This document shows positions 8,962-26,640 of a stretch of DNA of 64,000 nt, piece after piece. Origin of the DNA: Enterobacteria phage vB_EcoM_IME338. How positions within the stretch are numbered: position 1 is the stretch's first letter; each line of letters starts with the position of its first letter. The position numbers and the translations under genes are program-made. Where the stretch lies: sequence record MH051914; one strand, 5' to 3'. A model generated the notes under the pieces. It was not told the origin of the DNA, did not search any database, and worked only from the letters and a program-made list of their open reading frames with translations.

Positions 8962-9154
8962 TTTCTGCAAAGATTGTGCTATCGAAATGTTTGGACGTGA
9001 TACAGGTGACTTAAAAGGCCTTATCACTGAAGATGACTTTAAAGCTGGCTATGCAATGCCAGTAATCTGTGAAGGTTGTGGATGTATCTGGGTAGACCAC
9101 GAAGGACAACGTGTAAAACCTTCAGAAGATAAAGAATCTTGGGAGAGATGCTAA
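8954..9154 (+). CDS. hypothetical Cys-rich (zinc-ribbon-like) small protein
   Basis: CxxC...CxGC pairs; start moved to ATG at 8954 with AAGAGG RBS (track start 8918). Confidence 0.4.
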   Translation: MADFCKDCAIEMFGRDTGDLKGLITEDDFKAGYAMPVICEGCGCIWVDHEGQRVKPSEDKESWERC

Positions 9155-9940
9155 ATGGGTATTGTAAAAATCATCAATGGGGATATCTTCTCCGCATTTG
9201 ATAAAGGTAAGTTTGATATCATTGGTCACGGTTGCAACTGTATGAATTTAATGGGTGCAGGTATCGCTGACAAGATTTCTAAACTTTACCCAAAAGCATA
9301 TGAAACCGATACAGAAGTTTATCTGTATGCAGGTGGCATAGGTCACAAACCCTGTGAAAATTTACTAGGGAATTTCTCTGTAGCACGTTTAGAACAAGGC
9401 CGTATAGCTAACCTTTACACTCAGCTTAAGACTGGTAAAGATGCCCGATACAGTGCTTTAGAGTCATCTTTGAAACAGCTTAACAGATACTGTGAAGTTA
9501 ATCAGTTGAAGAAGGTTGGGTTACCTATGATTGGTGCAGGTATCGGTGGGCTAGACCCTCAAGCCGTCACAGTTATCATCAATCAGGTGATGAAGAGTGT
9601 AGATGTTTATCTATATGTCTACGAAGGAGAGATGTACCACAAGTTACGCTCAGGTTGGAAGAACTACTGTGAACCAGAATACTTTGCAGGTGTAGTTGTG
9701 TTCACGGATAATGCAGTTACCCTCTTCAGACGAAGAAAAGGTAAGATACATCAAAGTAACCCTCCGGTTGAAAAGATGTCTCTAAGTAACGCTCTAGTTA
9801 CCCACCTGTCGAAGAGCAATCACAGAATTGCAGTAACATTTGGCAGTGATGCAGATACGTATATCTATGCAAGAACTGATGAGGATATCGAGACGGTCTT
9901 CTCATCACCGGAAGTTACCTTCTTAGACGCAAAGAACTAA
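9155..9940 (+). CDS. macro-domain (ADP-ribose-binding/processing) protein
   Basis: N-terminal NGDIF...GHGCNCMNLMGAGIA and later GLPMIGAGIGGL match the macro-domain Gly-rich phosphate-binding loops. Confidence 0.6.
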   Translation: MGIVKIINGDIFSAFDKGKFDIIGHGCNCMNLMGAGIADKISKLYPKAYETDTEVYLYAGGIGHKPCENLLGNFSVARLEQGRIANLYTQLKTGKDARYSALESSLKQLNRYCEVNQLKKVGLPMIGAGIGGLDPQAVTVIINQVMKSVDVYLYVYEGEMYHKLRSGWKNYCEPEYFAGVVVFTDNAVTLFRRRKGKIHQSNPPVEKMSLSNALVTHLSKSNHRIAVTFGSDADTYIYARTDEDIETVFSSPEVTFLDAKN

Positions 9941-9996
9941 GAAACTCTGTAGAATATTCACAATAGACTAAGCCTTTCTTATCTGGTAAATTTTTC

Positions 9997-10215
9997 AGGT
10001 AAGGAGGGCTTTTTCATTTCAGAATTGTGCAGGTATATTTCTATAGAGAAATCTGTAGAGAAAATTTTGAACTCCAAAGAGGAAATTCATTTTCAAACTG
10101 TGCAGGTAATCTCCAAAGAGCTTTTTCATTTTCAAAACGTGCAGAGAAAAATCAGGTCGGGCAAGAAAAATCATTTTAGAATTGTGCAGGTAGGTGGGTG
10201 CAGGTGGGGATGTTG
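9997..10215. repeat. four direct repeats of about 28 bp (TTTTCATTTTCA-AAYTGTGCAGGTA), 40-45 bp apart
   Basis: copies near 10007, 10081, 10119, 10166; ends in GGTGGGTGCAGGTGGGG. Confidence 0.5.
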
Positions 10216-10369
10216 CCATTTCTCACAATGCTACCACATCTGAAAAGAAAAGTCAACAGAAAAATTTGTAGCGGATTGAAAAATAATTCTTGATTGTAGT
10301 TCTGTTTTGTGGTAGCCGCGCGCACCCGTTTCATTACAATTTTTTGCAAAAATATTTTTAAAATTCCTA

Positions 10370-10398
10370 TTGACTCTTTGAGTATGGTTATCTAATAT
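10370..10398 (+). promoter_or_regulatory. sigma70-like promoter for small-gene array
   Basis: TTGACT-N17-TAATAT. Confidence 0.55.
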
Positions 10399-10447
10399 TT
10401 GCATCAGACGGGCAATCAAGCTCACTTCCTAAACTGGAGAATCAGAA

Positions 10448-10630
10448 ATGGCTAAAAAGATTAATGTTGGCGACGAAGTTGTTTTAAAGTTCGAAAAACG
10501 CTACACAAGAATGTCAATTAGTTCTCACAAGGTTTATAATGTTGATGCTATAAACAGCGATGGGACAATCAAGCTAAAAGGACACAAAGAAAGTTTTCCA
10601 AAAAATATGTTTGACAAATGGAAAAAATAA
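10448..10630 (+). CDS. small hypothetical protein (array gene 1)
   Basis: conserved TIR CCTAAACTGGAGAATC-N5-ATG. Confidence 0.5.
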   Translation: MAKKINVGDEVVLKFEKRYTRMSISSHKVYNVDAINSDGTIKLKGHKESFPKNMFDKWKK

Positions 10631-10669
10631 GTTATTCTCTTCCTTGATTCCTAAACTGGAGAATCTAAA

Positions 10670-10876
10670 ATGCTTTACAGCCGTGAATTGATGGATACAA
10701 CCAACGTTAATACAAAGGTAAAACGTTTTTATATGCAAGTGTGTGGCGCATGGCGTAGAATACCAGAAGCTGACTATTGCAACTATGTAGAAACGGCTAT
10801 CAACTCTAGTTGTTACCTTACAAAGAATACAAAGAAACTTATAAAACATACAGCTGTTTACTATTACGATATATAA
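10670..10876 (+). CDS. small hypothetical Cys-containing protein (array gene 2)
   Basis: conserved TIR upstream. Confidence 0.5.
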   Translation: MLYSRELMDTTNVNTKVKRFYMQVCGAWRRIPEADYCNYVETAINSSCYLTKNTKKLIKHTAVYYYDI

Positions 10877-10964
10877 AAAGTACTTTACAAGGGGCTTAAA
10901 AGTTGATATCTTAAGCCCCAGATAAAGAGCTTTACTAACTAACCTTAAACTAGGAGATTCTAAA
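10877..10964 (+). repeat. intergenic module family A copy 1 (promoter + stem-loop + RBS), diverged
   Basis: TTTACA..GGGGCTTA...TAAGCCCC..RBS. Confidence 0.5.
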
Positions 10965-11345
10965 ATGGCTTATCGTGCACCGAAATTCATCAACAAAGAC
11001 AACTTTCGCAAAGTACTGGAGAAGTCACTTGATGAAAAATTTAACGGAAAATTGATTATTGTTCACGCATTTAATTTTAAGTATGACATTAACGGGAATA
11101 AAATCAATCATTACACGGCAACAATGGTGGACGGTTTACTATCAAGTGAAAAAGCCATACTGAATGCGCTTGCTGGACGTGGTAAAAACCTGATAAGATG
11201 TGATAAGAGACGTTATCAAGGCGGCACATATGGTTATGATGATACTGTTTATCATCTTGAAAACATGGGCTATCAAGTAGAAAAAGCTGGAGTATCACAA
11301 ATTATCGGTAGTGATGGCTATGTGACAATTTTTAAAATTAAATAA
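10965..11345 (+). CDS. hypothetical protein (array gene 3)
   Basis: conserved TIR; 126 aa. Confidence 0.55.
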   Translation: MAYRAPKFINKDNFRKVLEKSLDEKFNGKLIIVHAFNFKYDINGNKINHYTATMVDGLLSSEKAILNALAGRGKNLIRCDKRRYQGGTYGYDDTVYHLENMGYQVEKAGVSQIIGSDGYVTIFKIK

Positions 11346-11432
11346 AAAGTACTTTACAAGGGGCTTATAGTTCGATAAAGTAAGCCCCAGATAAAGAGCT
11401 TTATCACTCAATCCTAAATTGGAGATTCTAAA
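11346..11432 (+). repeat. intergenic module family A copy 2
   Basis: TTTACA-N17-TAAAGT with hairpin GGGGCTTA/TAAGCCCC overlapping the spacer and -10, then conserved RBS. Confidence 0.55.
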
Positions 11433-11945
11433 ATGAAAACTGTAGACGCTACCTTTGAAGTTGTAAAAGAAAAATTTTCCATCATTTATGAGGCTGTTAC
11501 TTGGTATGAACCAAGTCATGCCCTTGAAAATTGGGAATTTACAGATGACCATCAAGGCGGGGTAACTATCAAAAATCCTAACTATCAACGAAATGGATTT
11601 AAGTATGCAATCCCTTTACATTATAGCCTGAAACAGCTTTCAAGTGATTATGCAAAACAAGGCCGGGAAAATCCATCCCGTGAGGCTTACACCAGCTTAC
11701 AGGAAGAACTACAAAGGGATTTAGAGGCTTCAGAGTATTACCTATCTGCAAAAGTTGTCGATGCAAACGGAAAAACGGTCTTAGATAGTTTTTCTATTGG
11801 TTACGCTTTCGATTGGTGCTATAGCGACGGTGAGGATTTAGAGGATAGACTAAGAGAAGAGGTGAACAATTCAGACGCAGAATCTGAAGTTATGGAACAA
11901 TTAGAAGCCTTAAAAGATTCAGTGATGAATATCTTTAAAAATTAA
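11433..11945 (+). CDS. hypothetical acidic protein (array gene 4)
   Basis: conserved TIR; 170 aa. Confidence 0.55.
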   Translation: MKTVDATFEVVKEKFSIIYEAVTWYEPSHALENWEFTDDHQGGVTIKNPNYQRNGFKYAIPLHYSLKQLSSDYAKQGRENPSREAYTSLQEELQRDLEASEYYLSAKVVDANGKTVLDSFSIGYAFDWCYSDGEDLEDRLREEVNNSDAESEVMEQLEALKDSVMNIFKN

Positions 11946-11961
11946 ATTAAGAAGGAACATC

Positions 11962-12294
11962 ATGTTAATGATGGGTGTCACTGCAATCATAGCCATTATA
12001 GCACTTTATAAGGCATATAAAGCCTATAATCTAGCAAGTAAGGCAATCACGCAACAGGTTAACAATAATCTCGTGATGAACTTTCTGGAGCGTTTAAGTG
12101 ATGAGCAAATAAAACGGTTAGAAATGAGCTTCAGATTTCAATCAAAAACCTATCAAATCAGCGACATTTTCAAAGATGATTTTCAGCTTGTCGATGATTA
12201 TAACTCTCTGATAAATGCTTTAAATATCAGTGATTTAAAAGATTATCATGCTGTAATAGTTCAAGAATTGAGCAAACGAAAAAATTCCTCTTGA
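11962..12294 (+). CDS. hypothetical membrane protein (array gene 5)
   Basis: N-terminal TM helix; AAGGAA RBS. Confidence 0.5.
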   Translation: MLMMGVTAIIAIIALYKAYKAYNLASKAITQQVNNNLVMNFLERLSDEQIKRLEMSFRFQSKTYQISDIFKDDFQLVDDYNSLINALNISDLKDYHAVIVQELSKRKNSS

Positions 12295-12381
12295 TTTTGG
12301 TTTTTAAAACAAGTAAATTACTAATCAACGGGAGGGATAACCTCCCCACTAAGTAAAGTCCTTAAACTAGGAGATTCTAAA
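12281..12381 (+). repeat. intergenic module family B copy 1
   Basis: TTGATT-N17-TAAATT, hairpin GGGAGG-GATAA-CCTCCC, conserved RBS; 5' end includes last codons of upstream gene. Confidence 0.55.
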
Positions 12382-12654
12382 ATGTATACTACTAACAATG
12401 GCCGTACTCTAAATGTCACTCTACGCCACTATGTAGACGGCGTGATGAACTTTGAAGATTTACAAGCGGAGCAACATATCTTAGATTGGCAACTTGCTGG
12501 ACTTCAAAAAACTGCTACCGGATATGGTAAAAAGATTCCAACTAGCTGGAAAGTATACTACAAAGGCCGTTTGCGCAGAATTTATCAGGATGTATACAGC
12601 AATAGCGCAACAAGTTACATCATGGTAAAAGGTAAAAAGCTGCATTTAGTGTAA
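12382..12654 (+). CDS. hypothetical protein (array gene 6)
   Basis: conserved TIR. Confidence 0.5.
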   Translation: MYTTNNGRTLNVTLRHYVDGVMNFEDLQAEQHILDWQLAGLQKTATGYGKKIPTSWKVYYKGRLRRIYQDVYSNSATSYIMVKGKKLHLV

Positions 12655-12739
12655 AGTACTTTACAAGGGGCTTATAGTTCGATAAAGTAAGCCCCAGATA
12701 AAGAGCTTTATCACTCAATCCTAAATTGGAGATTCTAAA
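12655..12739 (+). repeat. intergenic module family A copy 3
   Basis: near-identical to copy 2. Confidence 0.55.
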
Positions 12740-13144
12740 ATGGCTATTAATAACCGTGAATTATCAATTTTAAAAGCACGTTTGACCGTTAACCGGATTA
12801 ATGTTATGACATCAGCAGCGCCAGATGAGACCTTATATAATATTATCGGAAAGATTCAAAGCGTTATCTTAGACGTTGAAAGCGTAAAAAAATCACTGAT
12901 TGACGTTGCAGCGGGTATCACGCTAGACGGCGCACAATATGAAATGGCTGACATGTTAGGCAAATCTAAGGTAATGAATAGAGAGCTGGATTTGAAAATG
13001 TTCCGTTTTGCTGTCAAGGTGTGGCTATCCATCGAATATGACGCAAATTTTGCAATCGCTGACTTTTTCGCAACATGGTTACAACGTAATTTAACAAATT
13101 ATGATTTTCGTGATATCTGCGACGTAATTTATTCAGAACTTTAA
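12740..13144 (+). CDS. hypothetical protein (array gene 7)
   Basis: conserved TIR. Confidence 0.55.
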   Translation: MAINNRELSILKARLTVNRINVMTSAAPDETLYNIIGKIQSVILDVESVKKSLIDVAAGITLDGAQYEMADMLGKSKVMNRELDLKMFRFAVKVWLSIEYDANFAIADFFATWLQRNLTNYDFRDICDVIYSEL

Positions 13145-13248
13145 AAAATTCCTCTTGATTTTGGCTTTAAAAGCAAGTAAATTACTAATCAACGGGAAGG
13201 GGATGAACTCCCCCACTAAGTAAAGTTCTTAAACTAGGAGATTCTAAA
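13145..13248 (+). repeat. intergenic module family B copy 2
   Basis: as copy 1 with compensatory changes in hairpin. Confidence 0.55.
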
Positions 13249-13452
13249 ATGGCTATTATTAACGGTTTAAACATTGAAACTACTCATATCAAAGATATCA
13301 AAGTCGGTGATATAGTCCTTTTTCACGGCGTAGAAAAAACCGTCACTGAAAAGGATATCAAAGAGGATTTATTCATGGGCCGGACTCTCTTCGGTGATTC
13401 CTATTGCTTAGGTTACCGTGCAGTTTTAAAAGTTATCAAAAATAATCGTTAA
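13249..13452 (+). CDS. small hypothetical protein (array gene 8)
   Basis: conserved TIR. Confidence 0.5.
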   Translation: MAIINGLNIETTHIKDIKVGDIVLFHGVEKTVTEKDIKEDLFMGRTLFGDSYCLGYRAVLKVIKNNR

Positions 13453-13537
13453 AGTACTTTACAAGGGGCTTATAGTTCGATAAAGTAAGCCCCAGATAAA
13501 GAGCTTTATCACTCAATCCTAAATTGGAGATTCAAAA
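13453..13537 (+). repeat. intergenic module family A copy 4
   Basis: near-identical to copy 2. Confidence 0.55.
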
Positions 13538-14080
13538 ATGAAATGCTTTCACGGTACTACTCAAGAAAATTTTATCAACCTGATTAATAACGGTGATAAG
13601 CCATCAGGTGCATGGAATTGTTCGGATATGGATGGGAATTTTTACGTTTATCCAGAAAATAAAATCTATGGCGACGATGAGGAAGAGATAATCTCTGAAG
13701 GTATCCAACAATCTCTGGGTAATGCCGCTATCACCGCAGCTTTCCAGATGAAAACTCAAAACATTGTTATCTTGGAACTTGATATTCCAGAGGATGAGTT
13801 GAATGATGATTATTCTTGTGATAATATGTCAAACGTGGCAAGTTTTACAGAGTATTTTGATACAAGCTGGATTAAAAAGGTTTACATCACTGAATTTAAT
13901 GCTATGTTTTCGCCATTTTGTCTTCCTTCACTGGATAACCCGAATTTAAACCATATTGATGAGTCTCTGGAACTCCTCGCTAAAAGCGTTCAACAGTCCG
14001 ACAATATTCAGGTTTTTTGTGACATCATGGACACACTGACAGAAAACATCATAGAAAGAGATTTGAAGAGCTTTTTCTAA
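13538..14080 (+). CDS. hypothetical acidic protein (array gene 9)
   Basis: conserved TIR; 180 aa. Confidence 0.55.
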   Translation: MKCFHGTTQENFINLINNGDKPSGAWNCSDMDGNFYVYPENKIYGDDEEEIISEGIQQSLGNAAITAAFQMKTQNIVILELDIPEDELNDDYSCDNMSNVASFTEYFDTSWIKKVYITEFNAMFSPFCLPSLDNPNLNHIDESLELLAKSVQQSDNIQVFCDIMDTLTENIIERDLKSFF

Positions 14081-14146
14081 TAACCTATACAATCACCTTA
14101 TAAACACTATTCAGCCCCTTGTAGGGGCTTTTAGAAGGCTTTAATC

Positions 14147-14380
14147 ATGCTTACAACCGTTTATCTCATCCTTTCCATCTGTAATGGTCATTCATGTGAT
14201 TTTAAAGGGCTTGAGGAGTTTACAGGGAGTAAAGAAAATGCTATTCAGGTTTGCCAGATAGCAAGGCAAGACTACCCCGCCAGTGATGATATACAATGTT
14301 ATTTTAAGACAGAAGACAGCGACGGCGTCTATTTTGACAGTGTTGACGGGCAAGATGAAATTATCATAGAAAAAGACTAG
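14147..14380 (+). CDS. small hypothetical protein (array gene 10)
   Basis: GAAGG RBS; GC hairpin upstream. Confidence 0.45.
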   Translation: MLTTVYLILSICNGHSCDFKGLEEFTGSKENAIQVCQIARQDYPASDDIQCYFKTEDSDGVYFDSVDGQDEIIIEKD

Positions 14381-14470
14381 ACAAGCCTGATAGAAATCTG
14401 TAAATTGTCAATTAACGGGGAAGCGATAACATCCCCACTAGATAAAGTCCTTAAACTAGGAGATTCAAAA
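14381..14470 (+). repeat. intergenic module family B copy 3 (5' part diverged)
   Basis: hairpin GGGGAAGCGATAACATCCCC + conserved RBS. Confidence 0.5.
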
Positions 14471-14719
14471 ATGTATACCAAAACACAGCTCAAAAATATG
14501 GTTAAAAATGGCTTGATGGATGAAGTCTATATAGAGTGTAGACGATATGGAGAAATCAAAGGTAAATCAAGCTATGAATACACCCACACAATAAACTTTA
14601 AAACTAATGAGCAAAAAACCGACTTGATAACTAGCATTATAATTGAGTACAAAGGTATAATATGGTCCTTTGAGCTAGTAAAAGGCGAGTGTATAGAAAT
14701 CGAATTCAAAGACGCTTAA
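14471..14719 (+). CDS. small hypothetical protein (array gene 11)
   Basis: start reset to ATG after conserved TIR; track ORF 14405 starts inside the repeat module. Confidence 0.5.
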   Translation: MYTKTQLKNMVKNGLMDEVYIECRRYGEIKGKSSYEYTHTINFKTNEQKTDLITSIIIEYKGIIWSFELVKGECIEIEFKDA

Positions 14720-14806
14720 AAGTACTTTACAAGGGGCTTAAGAGATTGATACCATAAGCCCCAGATAAAGAGCTTTACCACTAAATCCTAAACTGGAGTT
14801 TTCACA
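14720..14806 (+). repeat. intergenic module family A copy 5 (variant)
   Basis: same architecture, variant stem. Confidence 0.5.
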
Positions 14807-14953
14807 ATGTCAAATGCTGTTGAAACGGTTTTTAACAATCCGGTATTTTCAGAGATGATTTTCTCGTTTATCATGATGTTACTTGTTAAAACCATGAAAA
14901 AGGCCGAAAAATTACACTCAAAGAAAAAAGCTATTGCAAACCGTTTTAAGTAA
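14807..14953 (+). CDS. small hypothetical membrane protein, 48 aa (array gene 12)
   Basis: conserved TIR then ATG; hydrophobic core; below track cutoff. Confidence 0.4.
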   Translation: MSNAVETVFNNPVFSEMIFSFIMMLLVKTMKKAEKLHSKKKAIANRFK

Positions 14954-15000
14954 AGCTATAGTATCAATCAAGCCCACTTCCTAAACTGGAGATTCAAAAA

Positions 15001-15342
15001 ATGGCTTATGTAACTGTAATTACCAATAAAGCGGATTCATCTTGGTCAACTCAAGTAAGCGATAAAATGTCACCTATGCAGTGCCTAAAATACTTTGAGC
15101 AGTGGAACAAAGGCGAGGATGTCAGCCCCTTTCAAGTCATGCAGATTATCCATGTAAGCAATGAAGGGGTTAAAACGGTTTTAAATAGTGAGTACTATGT
15201 AACCAGATTTGAAACAAGATGTAAAGCAATGAAGCTCTTGCGTGAGTCTGGTTATGCCCATATCGCCGCGTTAATCTGGAATGACTTGCTAAAAAATCAG
15301 CGTATCAGCTACGTAAAACCTGAAAAAATATTCATCAGTTAA
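15001..15342 (+). CDS. hypothetical protein (array gene 13)
   Basis: conserved TIR. Confidence 0.55.
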   Translation: MAYVTVITNKADSSWSTQVSDKMSPMQCLKYFEQWNKGEDVSPFQVMQIIHVSNEGVKTVLNSEYYVTRFETRCKAMKLLRESGYAHIAALIWNDLLKNQRISYVKPEKIFIS

Positions 15343-15461
15343 TCAATAACTTACAAAAAACTTTTAAAAAGATGTTGACAATCCCTCTTGACATTGGTAA
15401 CTTTGTTCGAGGGGGTTTATCTAAAAGGGATTCACTTAAAAGATTCTTTATAGATAAACTT

Positions 15462-15564
15462 AAAAAATTGCTTGCAATCAGATATCAAAACAAGTAAATT
15501 ACTAATCAACGGGGAGACGATAACCTCCCCACTAAATAAAGCCCTTAAACTAGGAGATTCAAAA
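15462..15564 (+). repeat. intergenic module family B copy 4
   Basis: TTGCAA-N17-TAAATT, hairpin GGGGAGACGATAACCTCCCC, conserved RBS. Confidence 0.55.
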
Positions 15565-16095
15565 ATGAACAAGTTCAAAGCTATCAACTTCATTCGTTCA
15601 AATAGTGTCATGTCAAAGCCTGTCAAAGATACCTACGAATTTCGTTGCAATAGGGTACATTTTGCAACCATCACCAAATCAGAAAACGGGGCTTATTACG
15701 TTCATCGTCGTAATGCTGCAACCGTTGCAGTCTCTCACTTTATGCAAGCTGTAGCAGAGTTATTACCGCTATTCTTAGAGATTTACTTAGATGATTGTAA
15801 AAACGTTCACAGACACGTTAAAAACCTTTTAAATGGTTATAAAATGGCTTATGAACGTTCTATTAAGTCCTTAAACAAGTTCTATAAAGCCCCTGTAAAT
15901 ACTGTTTCAATGGCCTACGGCATAGGTGGCTGGACTGTTAACCTTTCTCTAGTGGAAGAAATCGAGCTTTATGATTTACGTCCTAGCTGTTACGCTAAGA
16001 CACTGGGAGAGGGCTTATCTTTCAACATCAAGAACTTAGAGAAAACTTTAAAAGATATTGAAAAAGATATTGATGAGACAATCAAAAATCTGTAA
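15565..16095 (+). CDS. hypothetical protein (array gene 14)
   Basis: start reset to ATG after conserved TIR; track ORF 15472 starts inside the repeat module. Confidence 0.5.
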   Translation: MNKFKAINFIRSNSVMSKPVKDTYEFRCNRVHFATITKSENGAYYVHRRNAATVAVSHFMQAVAELLPLFLEIYLDDCKNVHRHVKNLLNGYKMAYERSIKSLNKFYKAPVNTVSMAYGIGGWTVNLSLVEEIELYDLRPSCYAKTLGEGLSFNIKNLEKTLKDIEKDIDETIKNL

Positions 16096-16136
16096 ATTAC
16101 TAATCAACGGGGCTAAATAGCCCCAGATACCTGAAC

Positions 16137-16161
16137 AGCCCCTATTTAAAGGGGCTTTTTT
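16137..16161 (+). terminator. rho-independent terminator closing the small-gene array
   Basis: AGCCCC-TATTTAAA-GGGGCT followed by T6. Confidence 0.6.
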
Positions 16162-17880
16162 ACGTCTTATCAAATACCCTTTCCTTTCCTTTCCAGAATC
16201 TATCCCACTGGTTCGATAGAATCTATCTCATACCTTAAAAGCAATAACTCTATAGTCTACTCTATAATCTCTTATCAAATCAACTTAAATATAAGCCCAT
16301 AACCCGAAAGGGAAGGGCAACCATTAATTGGTATTGTTACCAATCCCTAAAACGCTCTATAAAGCTCTATAACAGCCTTATCAACCTAACTTAAGCAATC
16401 ATATTAACCCACTTTAAAAAGCCCTTCCTAGAGCTTCCCAGAGCCTTAAAAGAATCTTATAAGTGTGTGAGCTTTATCATCTCGTTAGCTATCTTAATGG
16501 TATTGTTATCAATCCCTAGTGAATAACTAAACAACCCCTTGATAGTCACTAAAAAGTATGTTATAGGGGTTTAAAAGTTACTTTGAAGTAGCTTAAAAGT
16601 TACGTAAATGCTAGCCCCCTTAACATTTTCTTAACAATTCCTTAACAATCCCTACATAGTTATGCTTTTAAGGCACTTGTTAGCAACTTGTTAGCCCCTT
16701 GTTAAATCTCTGTTACAACCATGTAAAAGTTTTGTAAGAGTCTTTGACATAGCCTTAAAAGCTCCTGTAAAGCCCTATAAAGAGCTATCCATACAGTTGA
16801 GGGGTAGATACTAGGAAGAGGCTTAAAAGAGCTTACAAAGAGCTATAGAGAGCTTTTAAGAGGGCTATTTAAAGGGTCACTAGGGGTTGGTAACAATACC
16901 AATTAAGAAGGAAAGGGAACGATAAGAAAAGAGATAAGTTGTGTTTGTAAACAACCACTGTGACCATGTTAATAGCTTGTTAAAAAGATTAGACACTTGT
17001 TAGGAACTTGTTAATTATCTTAACAAAATAACTCTTAAAAATTAACTAATTGGTATTGTTACCAATCCCTGTTAACTCTTGTCAGTCATCTGTTAAACCT
17101 CTGTAAAGACTATGTATCAACTGTTAAGAAACTGTTACACTCTTGTTAAAACTGTTAAGAAACTGTTAAGACCTCTGAAGAGATGTTAAGAGCTTGAGAG
17201 AGTTGTTAAGAAATTGTTAAGGATATTTTAAAATTTTGCAAAGTACTTGTAAGGGAGCTGTTAAGGGCTACCAAGCAGATATACATCTTCTACAGATATT
17301 TTTGAGTTCCTTCAAAGACCCTAAAAAATGACTTGATAGTCCTATTTTATAAAAATTTTAAAATTCTGAATAATTACCTAGACAGTCTTTTAAAAATACA
17401 GGCATAAACAGGCTTATAAGATACCTTGTTAGTACCGTGTTAGACCTTGTGAGATAAGGTCTGTAAAGATATTCCTGTTAAGTTTGTTAAAACAGTCTAT
17501 ATAGAGGCTTAGTAATACCTAGTGAACACCTATAGAGGGTAACATAGCTGACATAATGGGTTACTGTTAAGTAATACAGATAACCTAGAGATTAAGAGGT
17601 GTATAGGGGCTTCTAAGAGGGTATAGAGAGATGGTTAAGGTGATTGTATAGGTTGTTAAGAATGCTTGTTAGAAGAGTGTTTAGAAGGGCTATACAGAGG
17701 GCTATTAAGACCACTAGATAGTTACTAAGATACTATATAGTACTATATAACTATATATAGAGAGTAAGATTAAGAAGGTTGTTAAGAAGGGTAGATATTT
17801 TATTCACATATGATGGTGACCCAGAGGTTGGGACAACCGATAAAATTTTATAAAAATTATAAATTTCGTAAATTTTACTC
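16162..17880. repeat. ORF-free repeat-rich region (palindromes, iteron-like short repeats)
   Basis: no ORF of 60 aa or more on either strand; 4 copies of palindrome-containing motif GGTATTGTTACCAATCC; many CTTAAAAG and TGTTAAG repeats. Confidence 0.6.
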
Positions 17881-17883
17881 AAT

Positions 17884-17915
17884 AAAAAGCCCCCAATTAA
17901 GGAGGCTCTTAAGAT
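17884..17915 (-). terminator. rho-independent terminator (minus strand)
   Basis: minus-strand hairpin AGCCTCC-TTAATT-GGGGGCT followed by T-run, downstream of 17919-18599. Confidence 0.5.
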
Positions 17916-17918
17916 ATT

Positions 17919-18599
17919 TTAAATCAGTGTTTCCAGAACTGTCTTCAGTGATGACTTGGTTGTCTGATAAAAATGAGTAAATCCGTTGTTGTTATCGAAT
18001 ACCAGCATCATGATATCATCTCCATTGATTGGGTACACTCGGATATCATAGTGGGACCCATTAAAGACAGCAGAACCATTACAGAATACACTAAAATCAT
18101 CCACTGAGATATACTCTTCATGACCTGTGATTTTTATACAAACACCTTTACTCGGTCTCTTAGGGTTGATATCTTCCATCACAAGCATTTGTTGTCCACC
18201 AAGAGAAATCATAGTGAACTCTTTACGGTTCTGCTGTTTAACATACATTTCAAGTTTCTGCAAAGTATCTTTATAGAACGGATAAGACTCCTTAACAAAG
18301 ATACCTTTTAGTGGCTCTTTACCATTCTTAACTTCTCTGATATGCCGTACTGTTAAGACAAGCTGCTCTAGTCTGTTAAGGCTTTCTTTGGATAATGCTT
18401 CTTGAACATCATTCCAGTCAAGTACCAAGTACTTTCTCTCTAATTCAAACTGTTTTTCCATATCTATCAAATCCTGAAAATACTTCTTAGTGATTTTTGA
18501 CCACTCAGCAAAATGAATCTTTTTCTTCTTCCGAAGGAGAACCATATCTTTCAAGTTCATCCAATTCATCCTGCGAAGGTGTCCCGTAAGATTCTTCAT
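17919..18599 (-). CDS. hypothetical protein
   Basis: 226-aa ORF. Confidence 0.55.
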   Translation of the reverse strand: MKNLTGHLRRMNWMNLKDMVLLRKKKKIHFAEWSKITKKYFQDLIDMEKQFELERKYLVLDWNDVQEALSKESLNRLEQLVLTVRHIREVKNGKEPLKGIFVKESYPFYKDTLQKLEMYVKQQNRKEFTMISLGGQQMLVMEDINPKRPSKGVCIKITGHEEYISVDDFSVFCNGSAVFNGSHYDIRVYPINGDDIMMLVFDNNNGFTHFYQTTKSSLKTVLETLI

Positions 18600-24404: not shown

Positions 24405-24632
24405 GGCAGACCTACAGCTTCAAGTAAGATGGTACAGTAATCCATACAACAAGTCAAGAACTATTGCAAGTTAAAAAAGTTGTTGACAAAGTACTTGACA
24501 AGGTGTAGGCTTATAAATACTTAGAAGATAACTTAAAAGGTTCCTCTAAAAAGGCTATTTAAACAGATATCTTTCTGGATATCTATCTTTTATCTTAAAA
24601 GCCTTTTAAGAGGTCTTATAAGAGGCATACCA

Positions 24633-25004
24633 ATGAAAAACAGAACAAACAAAGGCCAGTTTAAAAAAGGCCAGTCTGGAAACCCATCTGGAAGACCAAA
24701 AGGCTCTCGTAACAAAAGCTCACTCGTAAAAGCTCAACTGACCATTGATAATTCTGCTGAGTTCGCTGCAAAGCTGTTTGAGGCGATTGTTACAAGGGAC
24801 GCGGCTAAGCTTGCAGAGTTCGGTTTGACGACTGACGATGTAAACCTGAAGTCAATGATGGAAGCTGGTAAAACTATCATGACCCACTCAGCAGGTGAGA
24901 TGAAAGCAATTGCAGCAGACACTAAGAAGACTCCTGATAATGGTGGTCAACAACAGACAGATAACAAACCAACGTTCTCTGCTGTAGCGACTCTCAAAAA
25001 ATAA
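24633..25004 (+). CDS. hypothetical protein with basic N-terminal GNPSGRPKG motif
   Basis: 123-aa ORF, AAGAGG RBS. Confidence 0.5.
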   Translation: MKNRTNKGQFKKGQSGNPSGRPKGSRNKSSLVKAQLTIDNSAEFAAKLFEAIVTRDAAKLAEFGLTTDDVNLKSMMEAGKTIMTHSAGEMKAIAADTKKTPDNGGQQQTDNKPTFSAVATLKK

Positions 25005-26519: not shown

Positions 26520-26548
26520 TTGACAACGTGTTTGATACCCTTTAATAT
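26520..26548 (+). promoter_or_regulatory. sigma70-like promoter (tRNA/ncRNA array), overlapped by palindrome GGGTAT...ATACCC
   Basis: TTGACA-N17-TAATAT. Confidence 0.6.
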
Positions 26549-26610
26549 GTTCTACATAGAAACGAAATGAGAACTTTTCTAAGATACTGAAAAATATTTT
26601 AAAAAAGTTC

Positions 26611-26640
26611 TTGACAACCACTAAAAAATAATGTTAAAGT
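26611..26640 (+). promoter_or_regulatory. second sigma70-like promoter for tRNA array
   Basis: TTGACA-N17/18-TAAAGT. Confidence 0.55.

Follow-up and report, generated by a model that had tools for sequence, protein, structure and literature searches.

By definition, promoter-early-stem-loop elements (PeSLs) combine a sigma70-like promoter and an AT-rich tract with a GGGG..CCCC stem-loop, for which five positions are described, and with a Shine-Dalgarno sequence (SD) and ATG (Arbiol et al. 2010, PMC2839356). The stem-loop is found most often between -35 and -10 or over -10 (PMC2839356). PeSLs are known from the T4-type phages RB49/phi1, PST/T4, and nt-1/KVP40 (PMC2839356; Comeau et al. 2014, PMC4122927), and promoter activity, terminator activity (in a lacZ assay), and cassette mini-circles were shown experimentally in T4-type phages. 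Modular shuffling by PeSLs has been documented only in T4-like phages, and the PeSL authors noted no evidence elsewhere. The present work deals with an array of small genes at positions 10300-16161 in a stretch of 64,000 nucleotides (the window; record MH051914) from Enterobacteria phage vB_EcoM_IME338. With a probability of roughly 70%, this is a hyperplastic accessory-gene array of PeSL-type cassettes in a Felix O1-like phage. Judged from the sequence, it matches the PeSL hyperplastic regions known from T4-type phages in anatomy and comparative pattern, but occurs in another subfamily.

The window belongs to a Felix O1-like myovirus (Ounavirinae). Megablast of 10300-16161 yielded 256 Felixounavirus-type phage records at 87-90% identity with patchy coverage, and a 22-tRNA cluster, typical of Felix O1-type phages, is also present. 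The array corresponds to the Felix O1 ORF14-23 interval, flanked by the terminators t13 and t23 of Whichard et al. It contains 14 + strand open reading frames (ORFs) of 48-180 amino acids (aa), which span 10448-16095 between both terminators; an original prediction for this DNA had counted about 14 small genes. The spacers contain repeated elements of three families, called modules A and B and leader C.

The original prediction had likened the spacers to PeSLs, and the sequence-level features described by Arbiol et al. 2010 (PMC2839356) were largely recovered, the AT-rich tract in part. The 20 nt upstream of -35 contain 65-90% A+T compared to a background of 61-64%, an enrichment that stands out at the lead and internal promoters but is modest in part of the A and B copies. 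As in PeSLs, a predicted sigma70-type promoter with about 17 nt between -35 and -10 lies in the intergenic element (185 of 186 A copies; frame TTGnnn-17-TAAATT for B in the window), a GGGG...CCCC stem-loop is located between -35 and -10 or overlaps -10 (A) or follows just after -10 (B), and the SD and start codon of the downstream ORF form the 3' end. Small ORFans separate the densely packed elements, and the region is plastic, with varying content and mostly neutral knock-outs in phage Bas63. Indels and replacements in relatives have their junctions in the elements, with the exception of gene G18, and PeSL crossovers were mapped between -10, SD, and ATG. The promoter consensus of PST/T4 PeSLs, TTTACW-N17-TAYWAT, is close to module A. 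Unlike the known PeSLs, the elements occur in Ounavirinae rather than in T4-like phages and have no sequence homology to T4-type PeSLs; because the sequence is unrelated and the lineage differs, they are analogues and not homologues. Furthermore, all elements are confined to one array between two terminators, whereas PeSLs occur in several genome regions. Only three sharply defined families exist, ending in a much longer invariant ribosome-binding site (RBS), and the hairpins lack U-tracts, with the A stem being extended by two AU helices.

Start-associated sequences (SAS) of cluster K mycobacteriophages (Pope et al. 2011, PMC3203893) are asymmetric SD-containing repeats a few bases before the starts of some non-structural genes. 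The initiation regions of the array resemble them in this arrangement, in conservation beyond the needs of rRNA pairing, and in being borne by genes of different families. About half of the SAS copies follow imperfect inverted repeats with a variable spacer (extended SAS, ESAS); similarly, 9 of the 12 initiation regions here follow an A or B hairpin. In contrast, the cluster K consensus 5'-GGGATAGGAGCCC is unrelated to the present motif and comes from other phages and hosts, SAS are scattered over half a genome, no promoter was described in ESAS, and SAS have not been linked to cassette turnover. The genome note on Citrobacter phage Mordin reported a 26-bp CCAACAATCCTAAACTGGAGAATCTA repeat upstream of eight genes and likened it to mycobacteriophage SAS (PMC4611695), and direct repeats of 57 bp and 39 bp in Felix O1 were listed without comment in an earlier paper (PMC3185647). 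A full-text literature search for the module motifs gave no mention beyond this repeat list and the Mordin repeat. The earlier papers presented the repeats without a PeSL interpretation.

The early genes of phage T7 are separated by RNase III processing hairpins, with three promoters at the head of the operon. The array shares with the T7 early region irregular ~20-bp hairpins with internal loops in the spacers of an early, presumably host-polymerase-transcribed operon of small genes; it differs by one predicted promoter per gene, and RNase cleavage is a conjecture here. Integron cassettes and the 'morons' of lambdoid phages (PMC2839356) are comparable in that promoter-supplied dispensable genes are added or removed as units, and attC sites are imperfect palindromes as well. 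Unlike in integrons, no integrase is known, crossover points are spread over the homology, and each cassette brings its own promoter; morons, in turn, have no shared flanking sequence.

Module anatomy and conservation

A repeat finder detected five copies of family A (at 10868, 11337, 12644, 13442, and 14711), four copies and a terminal half-copy of family B (at 12279, 13143, 14393, 15460, and 16085), and three copies of the short leader C (at 10413, 10635, and 14965). From left to right they are arranged as C C A* A - B A B A (terminator-like) B A C B, with A* being the chimeric copy at 10868 (A hairpin with B-type RBS). Two alternating families had been predicted; A and B are real and alternate in the window, but the third family was missed and the relatives do not alternate (A A A' B A B A A in LMP25). 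All promoter hexamers, hairpins, and coordinates were checked base by base. This verified the proposed combination of promoter, hairpin, and RBS for A and B but not for every spacer, as C is hairpin-less and G6 and G11 lack a module and directly follow G5 and G10, respectively.

Module A has the layout AAAGTAC-TTTACA-N17-TAnnnT with a GGGG..CCCC stem-loop within the promoter, where GGGGCTTA..TAAGCCCC covers the spacer, the final -10 base, and the predicted +1 region. Two further AU helices lengthen the stem to ~18 bp (-22 to -23 kcal/mol, z -2.5 to -3.6). The extended hairpin is an imperfect palindrome of ~57 nt, whose outer arms are conserved and whose centre varies. Module B consists of a variable -35 hexamer, exactly 17 nt, TAAATT, ACTAATCAAC, and then a GGGG..CCCC hairpin of 5-8 bp. 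Five B-type -35 hexamers (TTGATT, TTGACA, TAGACA, TTGCAA, and TTGATG) were found, each exactly 17 nt before TAAATT, and some of them fall within coding sequence or use the upstream stop codon.

Conservation of module A was analyzed with 186 copies from four genera, comprising 55 from 11 genomes and 131 from IMG/VR contigs of 84-94 kb. TTTACA, 17 or 18 nt, and TAnnnT are kept in 185 of them (55/55 in the genomes, 130/131 in the contigs). The -10 hexamer takes about 14 forms, with its T and A invariant within an otherwise variable loop. In all, 1443 occurrences of module A were located; the 287 phage records concerned cover Felixounavirus, Mooglevirus, Suspvirus, and Erwinia Kolesnikvirus, and every matching record belongs to the Ounavirinae. 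No match was obtained in 5,426 E. coli genomes, and a host origin was rejected on this basis. A mobile element resembling miniature inverted-repeat transposable elements was also rejected, the copies being confined to the array and to Ounavirinae.

Across the four genera the modules are 78-98% identical, whereas the neighbouring proteins in Erwinia phage SunLIRen are only 26-51% identical or have no match. The conserved module positions are the functional ones, i.e. -35, TA...T, stem pairs, and SD. Both observations, together with the unrelatedness of the flanked genes, speak against the repeats being passive relics of a tandem duplication of a gene and its upstream region with no present function; although they do stand in tandem and all on one strand, such an origin is hardly credible.

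Pairing of the A stem was scored on gap-free alignment rows. In total, 99% of the cells were paired, compared to 31-60% for controls with slid partners. Compensatory arm changes had been claimed between copies; they were confirmed between subtypes and genera but not between copies of the window, where all five A stems share one sequence and length is the main difference among the B stems. Subtype A' swaps two stem pairs, and one compensatory change, G-C to U-A, is present in 4/4 Erwinia-phage copies, with the SunLIRen stem reading GGTG/CACC instead of GGGG/CCCC. An arm-swap test between copies gave a modest difference for the A core (native -11.8 versus chimeric -10.3 kcal/mol). For the B hairpin the same test (native -11.3 versus chimeric -11.0 kcal/mol) lent no support to covariation, which was discarded. 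All one-sided changes in standard A pairs (11/11) stay G.U-compatible on the + strand, and the pattern favours a + sense RNA structure over a protein-binding DNA palindrome.

It is accordingly improbable that the inverted repeats are DNA operators, at which a dimeric protein of phage or host would shut off the early promoters. The arms tolerate G.U-type asymmetry (U.G in 7-11 rows), which is an A-C mismatch on the other strand, the half-sites change complementarily and not identically (GGTG/CACC, GGGGTTATC/GATAGCCCC), loop length and sequence vary, and the B hairpin is located downstream of its own promoter. An operator would fit the A palindrome spanning the spacer, -10, and predicted +1, and also the timing of the array ORFs, which peak at 5-25 min and not later; in Felix O1, reverse-transcription PCR placed the tested array ORFs at 5 or 25 min and none at 60 min.

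Exactly 12 of the 14 array genes are preceded by C[CT]TAAA[CT]T(A)GGAG..ATG, a translation initiation region of 22-24 nt, just as the original prediction had stated. This motif is confined to the array in the entire 64 kb (7 and 5 matches versus 0.3-0.6 expected), with no antisense copy anywhere in the 64 kb. The 24 nt upstream of the 12 starts share 65% pairwise identity compared to 33% for 60 other genes of the window, and conservation reaches far beyond the SD. Folding predicts a hairpin of 3-4 bp in the RBS, in which CC(U) is paired with the SD. The two forms of the RBS, CC[TAAACT]GG and CCT[TAAACT]AGG, are distinguished by two insertions, which together add one pair. No mixed copy occurs among 366 (232 have one form and 134 the other), but this perfect linkage of the insertions proves little since they are only 6 nt apart. 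In SunLIRen the motif is changed to CCCTTAyAAAGGAATC, yet CCUU..AAGG remains self-complementary. The weak stem and the closely spaced insertions make the evidence for an RBS mini-hairpin suggestive only.

Under the PeSL-type reading, each cassette would comprise one regulatory module and one (twice two) small, mutually unrelated genes, in an array with an intrinsic terminator at either end and a strong UP-element promoter at its head. Early in infection, host RNA polymerase would start at each predicted module promoter, so that a cassette would be expressed wherever it lands. The predicted A start is 7-8 nt after -10, just 3' of the stem, and the A RNA would begin with AGAUAAAG. Because of this position, the A stem-loop would be present only on read-through RNA, where it would serve as attenuator, 3'-end protector, or processing site rather than as a true terminator. 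The B stem-loop would stabilise the transcript made from its module, whose predicted 5' end (A(A)CGGGG) is ~2-3 nt away, and the uniform RBS would standardise translation.

The same structures could be, first of all, signals of an RNA-level regulon. The hairpins would then be RNase III/E processing or stability signals through which a long early transcript yields stable monocistronic mRNAs, as in the T7 early region, and the invariant RBS would be bound or cleaved by one trans-acting factor that turns all cassettes on or off jointly (like SAS/ESAS or T4 RegA/RegB), with cassette turnover as a by-product. Such a regulon would agree with the three helices, internal loops, and missing U-tail of the extended ~18-bp A hairpin, with the G.U-compatible one-sided changes, and with an RBS conserved far beyond the SD, whose predicted pairing gains a pair by the linked T...A insertion and persists in the altered Erwinia-phage motif; the Mordin authors had also compared their repeat with SAS (PMC4611695). 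It leaves the -35/17 nt/TAnnnT frame of the A copies unexplained, the mini-hairpin is very weak and the linkage spans 6 nt, the RBS has no antisense copy in 64 kb, and no candidate for the factor emerged, the phage proteome not having been profile-searched for relatives of RegA or RegB. On balance, this explanation is unlikely.

Cassette turnover among relatives

The array was compared in ten close relatives, with proteins clustered after fixing their starts at the conserved RBS. A comparison of this kind had been proposed as a check for gain and loss of cassettes at the repeats, and it supported the idea: the relatives differ by whole cassettes with junctions in the repeats, and every synteny break relative to the window lies in a spacer. 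Since all ten differ in this way, the array is not invariant. About 15 of 19 gene families are variably present, and G6, G7, G8, and G14 are always present.

The homology at the breaks falls into three classes. The indels of G4, G22, and G37 are flanked by the A module (88-102 nt), those of G2, G9-G13, and G12-G13 by the RBS alone (18-26 nt), and that of G19 by the AACGGGG hairpin arm (7-8 nt). The G19 position corresponds to a terminal half-module in the window (16085-16124), in which the B-type sequence TAAATTACTAATCAAC is fused to the hairpin GGGGCTAAATAGCCCC and AGATA; by its sequence, this is apparently the scar where relatives hold G19 as one extra cassette. G5 was lost twice, with crossovers in module A on either side of the stem. 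One and the same gene bears different modules in different phages, and the RBS type and the A-loop haplotype assort independently of position. Across genera, cassettes occupy other slots: Mordin has a G2-like gene in the interval from G11 to G14, and in SunLIRen the G18- and G37-like genes stand in other places. In the PeSL-type array, the identity of 8-100 nt between modules of unrelated genes would serve general homologous recombination, which would delete, insert, replace, and over longer times re-slot cassettes.

A dedicated recombinase that recognises the imperfect hairpins, as IntI does attC, and moves cassettes site-specifically was also considered, an idea raised for PeSLs by Arbiol et al. 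(PMC2839356). The imperfect palindrome of the A element (~57 nt), with its conserved arms around a variable centre, and the junction of the G19 loss exactly at the ACGGGG arm would be in accordance with it. Speaking against a fixed point, the crossovers are scattered upstream and downstream of the stem as well as within the RBS and scale with homology; cassettes flanked by unlike modules turn over too, and no recombinase turned up, although no search aimed at one was made. An integron-like system is for these reasons very improbable.

Two side observations concern the modules themselves. One spacer of Mordin (locus L010, 3419-3561) contains two tandem A modules in 143 nt, as would be expected from loss of the intervening gene or from unequal exchange. 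Homopolymer expansions were seen in the spacer downstream of G14 in NJ12 (A16; locus L007, ~8520) and in a B hairpin arm of phiWec177 (G10; locus L004, 6816-6858), representing either slippage-prone sites or sequencing artefacts.

Several points weigh against the array being PeSL-type. The location of breaks between genes is weak evidence by itself, because gene-sparing indels survive selection anyway, and no repeat flanks the G18 indel at 11947-11949. Within the genus, the genes follow a strictly collinear order. Orthologous modules average 0.90 identity compared to 0.86 for paralogues of the same genome; homogenisation is thus patchy, and genome-wide concerted evolution as a general rule was rejected, with local cases remaining, such as a private TATAGT variant at 4/4 A sites of ESCO50 and three identical copies in the window. 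Covariation rests on very few events, with none for B. The module promoters are mediocre relative to the consensus (9/12 for A, 8/12 for B), and the background of a generic promoter scan is high (49 hits versus 29 expected). No module hairpin is followed by a U-tract, whereas the true array boundaries have U-tails; this argues against efficient termination. With no U-tail found in the terminator scan, the module hairpins were rejected as intrinsic terminators, and a terminator role, as read from their sequence, is doubtful. Literature searches for transcriptome or transcription start site data on Felix O1-like phages found none.

Speculatively, and with rather low likelihood, the invariant RBS with its SD-pairing hairpin and the module stem-loops might form a dedicated cis-code read by a putative phage factor; this could be a repressor or activator of translation, an endoribonuclease, or a recombination helper that binds hairpins, for example. 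If so, the whole array would be one post-transcriptional regulon, possibly an actively serviced, integron-like cassette store and not a set of passive homologies.

Boundaries, module copies, and genes

All features listed in the following are on the + strand. An intrinsic terminator at 9970-10020 closes the upstream operon and forms the left boundary; its sequence is that of Felix O1 't13' (PMC3185647 Table 2). The right boundary is the terminator at 16137-16161 (Felix O1 't23'; folding z -4.4). In a terminator scan of 9000-18000, these two, placed by the scan at 9970-10011 and 16137-16156, were the sole U-tailed + strand hairpin terminators flanking the genes. A search against Rfam gave no family at E <= 1 across 9000-18500. 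A 28-34-nt repeat (TTTTCATTTTCAAAnyGTGCAGGTA) occurs four times at 10005-10195, in the interval from t13 to the lead promoter. Small minus-strand ORFs annotated at the equivalent position in Bas63 and UAB_Phi87 probably just reflect these repeats.

The predicted lead promoter (10344-10398; AT-rich UP-like tract, TTGACT, 17 nt, TAATAT) heads the array in all relatives, whichever gene comes first. It is followed by a C-type leader (10413-10447) with the short-form initiation region (tirA) of G2 at 10428-10450. G2 (10448-10630, 60 aa; phrog_15633, unknown function) is a variable cassette. A candidate promoter, TTGACA-16-TATTCT, inside the 3' end of G2 and the tirA of G3 occupy 10611-10672 in front of the variable G3 (10670-10876, 68 aa). 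The chimeric A copy 1 (10877-10967) contains the predicted promoter 10884-10912 (TTTACA-17-TATCTT), the core hairpin 10891-10919, the extended hairpin 10877-10933 (-22.2 kcal/mol, z -3.35), and a B-type RBS (tirB) at 10944-10967, and precedes the variable G4 (10965-11345, 126 aa). In A copy 2 (11346-11435), the promoter is predicted at 11353-11381 (TTTACA-17-TAAAGT), with the core hairpin at 11360-11388, the extended hairpin at 11346-11402 (-23.4 kcal/mol, z -3.57), and tirA at 11413-11435. It serves the variable G5 (11433-11945, 170 aa). At 16 nt after G5, G6 (11962-12294, 110 aa) follows with an SD of its own (AAGGA); its N-terminus is hydrophobic, and it is present in all 12 close genomes.

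B copy 1 (12279-12384) comprises TTGATT at 12291-12296, overlapping the G6 stop codon, 17 nt, TAAATT at 12314-12319, a hairpin at 12330-12346, and tirB at 12361-12384; the core cassette G7 (12382-12654, 90 aa) follows. A copy 3 (12653-12742; predicted promoter 12660-12688, core hairpin 12667-12695, extended hairpin 12653-12709, tirA 12720-12742) precedes the core cassette G8 (12740-13144, 134 aa), a homologue of Bas63 g105. B copy 2 (13143-13251; TTGATT 13155-13160, 17 nt, TAAATT 13178-13183, tirB 13228-13251) has a weak 5-bp hairpin at 13199-13213 with a centroid of -7.9 kcal/mol, no better than shuffles, and stands before the variable G9 (13249-13452, 67 aa). A copy 4 (13451-13540; predicted promoter 13458-13486, core hairpin 13465-13493, extended hairpin 13451-13507, tirA 13518-13540) is followed by the variable G10 (13538-14080, 180 aa), a homologue of Bas63 gp107. 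A terminator-like hairpin, AGCCCCTTGTAGGGGC then TTTT, lies at 14113-14135 between G10 and G11 without a promoter module and was under the U-tail threshold of the terminator scan. G11 (14147-14380, 77 aa) has its own SD without the conserved RBS and was found only alongside G10 in the ten close relatives and Mordin.

B copy 3 (14378-14473) begins with TAGACA at 14378-14383, in which TAG is the G11 stop codon, and continues with 17 nt, TAAATT at 14401-14406, a hairpin at 14417-14436, and tirB at 14450-14473. A copy 5 (14719-14809; TTTACA-18-TACCAT 14726-14755, core hairpin 14733-14762, extended hairpin 14719-14776, degenerate tirA 14787-14809) precedes the rare cassette G13 (14807-14953, 48 aa). 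C copy 3 (14934-15003) consists of TTGCAA-17-TATAGT at 14934-14962, with -35 within G13, the leader, and tirA at 14980-15003, and is followed by the core cassette G14 (15001-15342, 113 aa). A second predicted strong promoter at 15350-15462 contains a UP-like tract, TTGACA (15375-15380), 17 nt, and TAACTT (15398-15403), and is followed by a hairpin of ~50 nt (15413-15462). Promoter and hairpin are conserved in 12 genomes including Mooglevirus Mordin; the hairpin is almost invariant there, is conserved above the flanking genes, and shows no covariation. The element holds two RGATTC motifs similar to the conserved RBS, and may serve as a leader, as a small RNA, or as a decoy that binds a protein. 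B copy 4 (15460-15567; TTGCAA 15472-15477, 17 nt, TAAATT 15495-15500, hairpin 15511-15530 with -14.3 kcal/mol and z -3.1, tirB 15544-15567) precedes the variable G16 (15565-16095, 176 aa), which is absent in NJ12.

The 14 proteins are not mutual paralogues (best mutual E-value 0.096), and without mutual similarity they are unrelated genes sharing the same plugs. All of them match PHROG families of unknown function, and sequence searches of the 14 proteins against Pfam and the PDB gave nothing significant. For the host-takeover or anti-defence content which the original prediction had brought up, the only hints are one weak similarity to an ADP-ribosyltransferase fold in the predicted model of G10 and published knock-out data on a relative. 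Genes 98-111 of Bas63 are the counterpart of the array, and most knock-outs of array genes scored as non-essential in a screen of that phage (bioRxiv 10.1101/2024.10.10.617714). Among the array genes, in the published PhageMaP data, only disruptions of g103 (G6) and, in MG1655, of g105 (G8) lower fitness; both correspond to core cassettes present in every relative. Bas63 g107 (G10) was flagged as more needed in strain S17-1 (bioRxiv 10.1101/2024.10.10.617714).

Directly 3' of the array terminator, 1.76 kb (16161-17919) are free of ORFs and dense in short repeats with 11-bp phasing (nTGTTAnnnnn; e.g. 16671-16738 and 17090-17221). This region also contains AT-rich palindromes and a 24-nt repeat, TAATTGGTATTGTTACCAATCCCT, which occurs three times in direct and once in inverted orientation. 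GenBank records of several relatives start or stop 0.6-1.1 kb from the array end, for which reason the region may contain genome termini, a packaging site, or an origin. The same class of strong promoter (AAAAnTTTTAAAAAG with TTGACAA) was seen at 24483-24530 and 26520-26640, upstream of a gene at 24633 and of the tRNA cluster, which suggests a phage-wide type of early promoter with an UP element.

Implications

Accessory cassettes of Felix O1-like phages can be recognised by the modules, which thereby give a shortlist for host-takeover and anti-defence screens; these phages are widely employed in typing, biocontrol, and therapy and include the BASEL model phage Bas63. The modules may also be regarded as natural standardised expression plugs for engineering and as predictable deletion sites in production stocks. 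The occurrence of an array of the same architecture but unrelated in sequence through four genera of Ounavirinae suggests that linkers composed of promoter, hairpin, and RBS are a recurrent way to hold and exchange accessory genes in large virulent phages.

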